From the NCBI RefSeq assembly GCF_004010195.1, contig NC_057719.1, positions 25,931,641 to 25,995,640 on the forward strand: 64,000 nucleotides of DNA, written 5' to 3'. Numbering within the stretch: position 1 is the first letter of the stretch; each line of letters starts with the position of its first letter. Made by a program: the position numbers and the translations under genes. Source of the DNA: Chiloscyllium plagiosum (taxonomy: Eukaryota). Shown here in pieces: positions 3,850 to 62,492 of this stretch. The notes below the pieces were generated by a model. It was not told the DNA's origin, did not search any database, and was given only the letters and a program-made list of their open reading frames with translations.

Positions 3850-5346
3850 GGAGCAAATTACTGCAGATGCTGGAATTTGTATTGAAAACAAAAAATGCTG
3901 GAGATCACACTCCTTCAACAGAGAGAAAGTAAGCTAACATTCTGAGTCGAGATGACTTTTCATCAGTGCTGATGTGAAGTATGGAGGGTACAGCATTTAT
4001 GCTGGGGGTGGGGCTGGCATGGGATGCTGGGGGAGAAACCATGTTGATATTTCAGATTAAGTGATTAGATTGTGAGAAAGGCACAGCAATGGTGTGTCTA
4101 ACTGCCACACTGGAAAGAACAGGCAGTCCCACTGGAGAGACAACAGCGTGATCAGGTCCCCCTTGTCTTCAGTTTTCATCCCAACAGTCTCCACATTCAA
4201 AGGAACATTCCCTGCCATTTCAGAAAACTCCAGGAGAACACCACCACCAAACTCATCTTCCCCTCACATACCCATCTGCATTTTGCAGAGATCATTCCTT
4301 CCGGGACACCCTGGTCCATTTCTTGGCCACCAACACCATCCACCCTTCCCACGGCACCATCCCATGTAACCACAGATGGTGCAACAGCTGCCCCTTCACC
4401 TCCTCCCTGCTCACCATCTAAGGGCTTAAACAGTCTTTCCAGATGAGACAGTATTTCACCTCCACCTCCTCTAATTTTGTGTATTGTATTAGCTGTGTCA
4501 CCCCAACCTTCCCATAGCCAGTTATTTTAACACAGTGTCCTGTTCACATGCCCACATGTTTGTCCTCGGCATGCTGCAGTACTCCAGTGAATCATAGAAC
4601 AAACTGGAGGAACAACATCTCATCTTCAGACTTGGCACTTTACAACCTTCTAGGCTCAGTATTGTGTTCAACATGTTCAGATTTTAACCCACTCCCATTC
4701 GATTCGATTCAATTCCCCACAATGTGGAAACAGGCCCTTTGGCCCAACAGGTCCACACCGACCCTCTGAAGAACAATCCACCCCCATCTGACTAATGCAC
4801 CTAACACTATGGGCAATTTAACAAGGCCAATTCACCTGACCTGCACATCTTTGGACTGTGGGAGGAAACTGGAGCACCCGGAGGGGAACCACACAGACAC
4901 AGGGAAACTTCACACAGACAGTCACCCAAGGTTGGAATTGAACCTAGGACTCTGGTGAGGCAGCATTGCTAACCACTGAGCTATCGTGCCGCCCCGAATC
5001 CTTCCCTTTCTTCTAGCTTTACTTGTTACATTCTCTGTCACCATGTCCTCTCTCCCTTCCCCCACCCCTGTGGGACTGTCTATTCTTTCCAGTCTGGCAG
5101 TTAGACACACCATTGTTGTGCCATTCTCACATTCTAATCACTGAATCTGAACTATCAACATCCTTTCTCCCCCAGGCACTCCACTTTCCTGACCCCACCG
5201 ACTGCCACCACTTATAGCGTAAATACTGCCTTCTCCACACTTCACATCAGCTCTGATGTAGAGTCATCTAGCTTCGAAATGTTAGCTTGCTTTCTCTCTG
5301 TAGGTGCTGCCTGACTCACTGTGATCTCCAGCGTTTGTTGTTTTTC
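3850..5346 (+). mobile_element. Penelope-like element: inverted 5' pLTR copy (about 3850-4137), degraded linker/GIY-YIG region, and 3' pLTR with a decayed HHR; interrupted by an HE1 SINE
   Basis: About 3850-4137 is the reverse complement of about 5065-5346. The 4145-4690 stretch resembles the PLE linker/GIY-YIG C-terminus (QVPLVFSFHPNSLHIQR; KLEEQHLIFRLGTLQPS). HHR-like motifs lie at about 3933-3966 (-) and 5253-5286 (+). Confidence 0.85.
4696..4993 (-). mobile_element. HE1-type SINE nested in the Penelope element
   Basis: Colinear with 1596-1916 (tgtggaaacaggccc...ttcacctgacctgcacatctttggactgtgggaggaaac...ctaaccactgagc). Confidence 0.88.
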
Positions 5347-25850: not shown

Positions 25851-26014
25851 CATATAACTAGAAAGCAGGAATTATCAATAGTGCTTCGCCCGGAGGCCCA
25901 CTGAAGGTGTTACCTAGTTGGGTGACGAAACATCTGGAAGTGAACCTTCCAGCTCAGCGAGCAAACCTACATCTAGAACCTCAACCTGAGCTAAAGATCT
26001 TCTTAAAGCTCGCT
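25851..26014 (+). mobile_element. Penelope pLTR fragment with a mutated HHR, nested in the CR1
   Basis: cca-CTGAAGG-t-gttacct-agtt-gggtgac-GAAAC-atc-tgg (25898-25937); homologous to 61880-61982. Confidence 0.8.
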
Positions 26015-61482: not shown

Positions 61483-61650
61483 TAAAACAAAACACTGCAG
61501 ATGCTGGAAATCTGAAACAAAAATAGAAATTACTGGAGCAATTCGGCAGATCTGTCAGCAACTGTGGAGAGAAAGCAGACATAACACGTCACTGGACCCC
61601 AAACTTTGCTTTCTCTTCACAGATGCTGCCAGACCTACTAAATTTCTCTC
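61483..61650. mobile_element. Fold-back Penelope-derived element; the junction falls inside the HHR
   Basis: Arms gcagatctgtcagcaactgtggagagaaagcag / gctttctcttcacagatgctgccagacc; centre gtcactggacccc is an HHR stem II remnant. Confidence 0.75.
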
Positions 61651-61744
61651 TATGTAAATAGAAGTTCTTTCATAGTTTGTGCGAAGATTTGTAGCTCGGG
61701 TGCTCGTTGTTGTGGTTCTGTTTGCCGAGCTGGAAGTTTTTGTT

Positions 61745-61784
61745 GCAAACGTTTCGTCCCCTGGCTAGGCGACATCATCAGTGC
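61745..61784 (-). ncRNA. Second hammerhead motif, an identical inverted copy
   Basis: Reverse complement reads gcactgatgatgtcgcctagccaggggacgaaacgtttgc. Confidence 0.75.
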
Positions 61785-61906
61785 TGGGTACCCAATATAC
61801 CAACCACGACAGCGGACAGCTGAAACTGACAACCAGAAGCGGCAGGGACAGACCACTATAAACACCAGAGGAAACATCAAAGAAGCGCTTCGCAGGAGGC
61901 TCCCAA

Positions 61907-61946
61907 GCACTGATGATGTCGCCTAGCCAGGGGACGAAACGTTTGC
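61907..61946 (+). ncRNA. Minimal type-I hammerhead ribozyme motif with an intact core
   Basis: GCA-CUGAUGA-U-[GUCGCCU agcc AGGGGAC]-GAAAC-GUU-UGC: stem I GCA/UGC, palindromic ACGU stem III, predicted cleavage after GUU (61943). Confidence 0.8.
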
Positions 61947-62345
61947 AACAAAAACTTCCAGCTCGGCGAACAGAACCACAACAAGTTCTTTCATTCTATT
62001 TCTTCCACCGGTGGTTCAGGAGCTAGAATCCCTGATATCTAGTGTAGAAGTATTTGTGTCTGATAGCCCAAGTTTTACAATGAGAGCAGTGCATACTCAT
62101 TTTCTTCACATCGATCTGAAAATGCAGTGATCATAAAGTTATGCATATCTGGCCTTTGTAGTTGCTTTCCAACTCTCTGGCATCTACTTCAACAATATTT
62201 CCTGCAGCAGTTATCAACTACGACTGAGAGCAAATAGAGCAGTCAAATGGGAATGCTGGAAAGAAAGGATGTCTTTGGTGGGGAGAGAACAGATGGGAAA
62301 AGGGAACAGACAGTTAAAGGAATTCCTCAGCTCAATTCAACCTAC

Positions 62346-62492
62346 ATGATCATTCCATTTCCAGTACTTGGTGTAAACAGTTCCTTTTCATCCTCAATTT
62401 CTCTTCTTCTTTGTAATGAACTGCTGCCAGCTGAGTAAATAATCCCTGCTTCATGGTTGTAGGCCATCTGTGAGTTCAAATCTCGTGTTCCA
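62346..62492 (-). CDS. Weak candidate 147-nt symmetric exon (GTRDLNSQMAYNHEAG...ELFTPSTGNGMI)
   Basis: Acceptor aatattttcag|, donor cat|gtaggt (moderate), open frame, length divisible by 3. No recognised homology. Confidence 0.2.

Follow-up and report, generated by a model that had tools for sequence, protein, structure and literature searches.

A young two-armed Penelope-like insertion in Chiloscyllium plagiosum with a hairpin interior likely filled in by the assembler

The window analysed here is the whole stretch of 64,000 nt at positions 25,931,641 to 25,995,640 (forward strand) of contig NC_057719.1 in the C. plagiosum assembly GCF_004010195.1. Near its right end, two copies of the 12-nt sequence AAGTTCTTTCAT, identical at 12/12 positions, enclose an inverted repeat made of two ends of a Penelope-like element (PLE). 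The features of the insertion are as follows, where T and S denote tail-type and tail-less ends, respectively, and L127 is the full-length copy introduced below.

61662..61673, plus strand: target site duplication (TSD), left copy, present once at the empty orthologous site of organism B
61674..61707, minus strand: PLE tail of ~34 nt, T end, unpaired in the hairpin, mapping to ~2470–2507 of L127
61708..61783, minus strand: inverted pLTR 3' arm, of which only the outer part looks locus-specific from its variant profile
61748..61781, minus strand: minimal hammerhead core, minus copy, with a 3-bp stem I only and no helix III, likely assembler-filled
61748..61825, no strand assigned: invariant junction segment (element positions 75–152), common to 112 assembly loci
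61790..61982, plus strand: sense pLTR, mapped on L127 and ending at the S site
61910..61943, plus strand: minimal hammerhead core, plus copy, with CUGAUGA, an extra U, stem II and GAAACGUU
61983..61994, plus strand: TSD, right copy, placed with the contigs of organisms A and B

A contig from the related organism B carried the empty site: its left and right flanks are joined by a single copy of the 12-mer, with 14 differences from the window across 481 nt. A contig from organism A connects the right flank to the right arm. Given the TSD, the empty site and the organism A contig, we accept the insertion, its ends and its recent origin as real, as a preliminary description made from the sequence had proposed for the perfect 12-bp TSD and the young age. 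The chance rate of our TSD finder was 4 in 962 mismatched flank pairs. The inverted arms were identical at 80/82 nt, in agreement with the ~80-bp near-perfect arms first described, but the left arm is really ~115 nt long since it includes the ~34-nt tail, which had been overlooked. The element contains 17 CpGs with an O/E of 0.82 versus 0.22 for the whole window. These had been taken to be unmutated, but CpG transitions were found at 61723 and 61867 relative to the majority of loci sharing the window junction, and at 61835 relative to the family majority. The identical hammerhead cores reported on the plus (61910–61943) and minus (61781–61748) strands are present as assembled, in an interior that the assembler probably filled in (see below). 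Immediately left of the insertion, positions 61490–61648 were occupied by other high-copy repeats, including a 42-nt inverted repeat of 81% identity. At 62420 and 62424 the window differed from all four runs examined from both organisms, and these positions are likely assembly errors.

The sense pLTR covers the end of a GIY-YIG ORF, a TATAAA at 61857–61862 and the hammerhead, and the next ORF starts in it, with its ATG inside the plus core; the predicted cut falls after 61943. The exact 38-nt core had 3,409 matches in the 3.56-Gb genome, where a control pattern had 0. Frames at loci carrying the window's pLTR encoded a reverse transcriptase (RT; Pfam RVT_1, E 1.4e-8) with a DKG motif and, at scores under the Pfam cut-off (E 0.04–0.06), a GIY-YIG-like end, and the order of RT followed by a C-terminal GIY-YIG was seen in L126 and L127. 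L127 is a full-length pLTR-ORF-pLTR copy of an older subfamily (pLTR at 1885–2075, ORF, pLTR at 4388–4580), whose pLTRs are 85–87% identical to that of the window. On its map, the window element consists of a sense pLTR reaching the tail-less site and an inverted, tail-bearing pLTR end. Several hallmarks of EN+ PLEs were represented: RT with a C-terminal GIY-YIG (below cut-off), ORF-flanking pLTRs with a hammerhead, an inverted truncated copy, a one-sided tail and a TSD. The parent is a Penelope/Poseidon-like retroelement, for which the Poseidon clade name rests on architecture.

Several other copies were noted. L126 and L127 are near-complete older Penelope copies with open frames of 658 and 567 aa, and L126 has pLTRs in both inverted and tandem arrangement. 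L091 (1005–2159) and L016 carry the window's pLTR followed by non-ORF sequence common to loci, possibly a non-autonomous, retrozyme-like derivative. The window also contains, at positions 25899–26002 of the plus strand, what is left of an older pLTR from a related Penelope family. It is ~70% identical and retains a tail and a degenerate core of the hammerhead, and an inverted partner was not seen.

The window element is a two-armed Penelope-like stub of a type already known, and both this layout and opposite-strand hammerhead pairs have been published; pairs of minimal hammerheads on opposite strands 100–700 bp apart are described in PMC4209133. The insertion units of EN+ PLEs (Penelope/Poseidon; Pen2a_Av, PMC3846280; PMC8557442) are likewise described with a 5'-truncated pLTR and an adjacent inverted pLTR, a 30–40-nt tail at one end, a short TSD and a junction palindrome, while the window element differs from them in having no ORF body, two very short arms and an interior that is likely not true to the locus. 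The PLE tail itself is described in PMC8557442 and PMC11167929. In Poseidon_Ac of the green anole (PMC11167929), the ORF begins at hammerhead stem II and the tail lies between two end positions within an AC-rich stretch, as in the window family; L127 also has an ORF starting inside the hammerhead, like the anole element. The window family differs from Poseidon_Ac in being known here from genomic ends alone and in its cleavage triplet, GUU. Non-LTR retrozymes (preprint 10.64898/2026.07.22.740005) resemble the window element in being small, non-coding and pLTR-derived with a type I hammerhead, but they are head-to-tail tandems, in which each unit has a hammerhead, whereas the copies in the window are inverted head-to-head, so that no strand carries two hammerheads.

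We then examined the geometry of family insertions. Among the first 100 core matches listed, all 16 pairs of neighbouring cores within 5 kb pointed outward, 161–3489 bp apart, and 0/16 were in direct orientation. Of 26 family insertions ordered by position, an inverted pLTR end lay in range of 15. The locus edge cut two of these, and among the other 13 the partner arm reached the core in 10, indicating that two-core insertions are common. The ends obeyed a simple rule. All 10 of the position-ordered loci with a TSD had one T and one S end, with junctions that differed among them. The 105 loci with the window junction comprised 53 with a TSD (35 T/S and 18 S/T, with no like-ended case) and 52 that gave none, many owing to gaps. 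Overall, one tail and one tail-less end were found in 63/63 TSD-bounded insertions, with a TSD length mode of 12–13 nt.

The Poseidon protein is described as cleaving and extending both strands, with two RT start sites bounding the tail (PMC11167929). The end rule fits priming from both nicked strands, and twin priming is the simplest reading of the insertion ends. The GIY-YIG domain would nick the two target strands ~12–13 nt apart, reverse transcription would be primed by one 3'-OH at the tail site and by the second ~34 nt upstream, and the two short cDNAs would then be joined head-to-head, such that the hairpin would be a consequence of this geometry rather than of selection to silence a ribozyme. 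Alternatively, the same insertion might owe its inverted arm not to two priming events but to a single cDNA that folded back or primed itself, or to an antisense template. This finds some support in the 10-bp palindrome at the inversion point of the assembled junction (within 61748–61825), since self-priming with an antisense strand as template has been proposed to account for such palindromes (PMC3846280). However, self-priming alone leaves the opposite start-site ends in 63/63 cases, in either polarity, unaccounted for, and the palindromic junction may not belong to the window locus, so that we regard this origin as unlikely. The 63/63 rule is a modest addition that supports twin priming in a class whose insertion cycle is unresolved.

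The central junction behaved differently from the ends. The exact window junction occurred at 112 assembly loci, or 117 when up to two mismatches were allowed. One way to explain this is a non-autonomous hairpin family, in which a single inversion event created the junction and read-through RNA then served as template for more than 100 further copies, each with both ends re-cut at the two start sites. Besides the 112 exact junctions, such a family would account for a linked allele in 100/100 of the junction copies listed (versus 42 against 3,327 parent-context copies), for the one junction being found with either end polarity and for right flanks common to some loci. All of these points are, however, also expected from one graph edge reused by the assembler.

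The variation within the junction loci speaks against such a family. In the core (element positions 75–152), 3 variants were found in 8,170 bases, compared with ~49 expected from the 0.6% rate in other copies and in the ends of the same junction loci; the core thus lacks the private mutations that those same loci show at their ends. At element positions 153–170, 75/79 junction loci carried exactly one of five alternative rare alleles, and at 171–191 variation was seen in 0/74. The rare alleles excluded each other within ~40-nt windows, with successive windows combining freely, and the outer left arms of the junction loci showed family-wide polymorphisms. In a stricter subset, one such rare allele was present in 42/45 junction copies versus 28/76 other copies. 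Substitutions toward the alphabetically earlier base made up 152/174 in junction copies versus 129/288 elsewhere, these being counts of non-independent events, and the allele bias had no clear dependence on scaffold orientation (P 0.06–0.16). Breaks clustered at two element positions: 18 loci broke off at 152, with N following in 12, and 16 loci at 345, with N following in 13. A 453-nt flank was identical at four loci, terminated by a gap in each, and also sat behind unrelated junctions.

Since an invariant core combined with mutually exclusive, mixed alleles is not readily given by descent, gap filling from a k-mer graph is favoured, and we consider a re-copied hairpin family quite unlikely. 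If it were true, a ribozyme-locked double-stranded RNA would be a working template, with the second end primed separately. Under gap filling, the middle of the hairpin was likely supplied by the assembler from its k-mer graph rather than read at the window locus, the junction segment is likely a reused graph edge and the k of the gap filler would be ~37. The window copy carries the shared junction and two tiled alleles, those at 61835 and 61867 in the sense pLTR being members of the tiled set, and its interior is therefore not assured to be true to the locus; both hammerhead cores likely fall in the assembler-filled part, and locus-specific sequence seems confined to the outermost ~35 nt of each arm. 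Some points weigh against an artefact. A genuine junction present in many copies would likewise look invariant if the assembler had collapsed it, and a small number of genuine copies is hinted at by five loci with 1–2 junction mismatches and three with alleles at element positions 77–83. At 61808, the summed depth of contigs, a measure too noisy for counting junction copies, gave a non-T share of 1.9% (X1) and 5.4% (X6).

Two lines of evidence were dropped. Transduced flanks were set aside, and allele gradients in the right arm were rejected as proof of the template strand, both because the same flanks occurred behind different junctions and ended at gaps. Identical host flanks were also observed behind the pLTR at seven (L188–L194) and three (L185–L187) loci on different contigs, mostly ending in gaps; these are likely pasted contigs, with transduction as the alternative.

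A re-copied inverted Penelope junction was not reported in the titles and abstract openings of the literature covered, which lay outside subscription journals and supplements. The caveat about the assembly is the main new point, the biology being mostly ordinary for Penelope-like elements: hairpin interiors in this assembly may be stitched together from other loci, giving the false impression of a young family of 100 copies that share a junction. Other fixed-junction hairpins found in short-read assemblies deserve equal scrutiny.

The cores, as assembled, have the features of the minimal type I hammerhead (PMC4209133), namely the conserved core, the extra base 9.1, G10.1–C11.1 and a palindromic 15.2–16.2. 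As in the metazoan PLE hammerheads described there, CUGANGA is present, the extra base lies between 9 and 10.1 and a palindromic CG replaces helix III; the window motif, a predicted one, differs in having a helix I of 3 bp plus a distal stem. An Rfam scan returned no hammerhead family at E<=5 for this motif without helix III. The cleavage triplet is GUU (61940–61943) in the young subfamily of the window and GUC in L127 of the older subfamily. GUU is a weaker hammerhead triplet than GUC, which would be consistent with spread that does not depend on cleavage.

Folding predictions bore on three proposals of the preliminary description. The possible distal stem-I pairing (GGAGG/CUUCC) in the plus copy formed when the plus arm was folded alone. 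The idea that the antisense arm is made first and could silence the ribozyme on either strand also held as a prediction, the emerging core pairing with the earlier-made antisense arm on both strands. Cleavage had been expected to compete with hairpin formation, but adopting the hammerhead fold was predicted to cost 2.7–2.8 kcal/mol in the isolated arm against 70.9 kcal/mol on the plus and 68.3 kcal/mol on the minus strand of the full element, and given this difference the hairpin is predicted to block both ribozymes by lock-out, not competition. A single minimal PLE hammerhead is described as not cleaving unaided (PMC4209133), and the anole PLE hammerhead as requiring the element's protein and being dispensable for insertion (PMC11167929). 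Locked in the hairpin according to the prediction, the ribozymes are probably passengers, and their silencing is best read as a by-product of insertion geometry. In sum, we read the element, with a probability of roughly 0.7, as a recent truncated insertion of two head-to-head pLTR ends, likely primed from both strands, with ribozymes that are likely passengers and a middle that probably stems from assembler gap filling.

It had also been suggested that the insertion neutralises itself within an intron, and the antisense arm might then have been kept for its neutralising effect on the ribozyme within a host intron. Full sequestration on both strands, as predicted by folding, agrees with such a role, as does the depletion of retrozymes from Xenopus introns described in the preprint 10.64898/2026.07.22.740005. 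The intronic position received no support, as no host exon or gene was detected among 282 Pfam-scanned frames of the window, a weak test: 139 frames of at least 55 aa from 40–64 kb gave no match above cut-off, and 143 of the 169 non-repeat frames from 1–40 kb gave none at E<=0.001. Moreover, the head-to-head layout is the default of the family, as in the 16 outward-pointing pairs, and the normal form of insertion (also PMC8557442), single minimal motifs did not cleave without help (PMC4209133, PMC11167929), the insertion is too young for selection to show and both cores at the locus lie in the part likely filled by the assembler. Retention for neutralisation is thus very improbable.

RNA reads of the family were also seen; run X22 contributed none and carries no weight. 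In RNA run X21 (~2% of the run), 248 reads covered the arms in both directions, and 96% of them continued into other sequence; these reads are derived from the family, not from the window locus.
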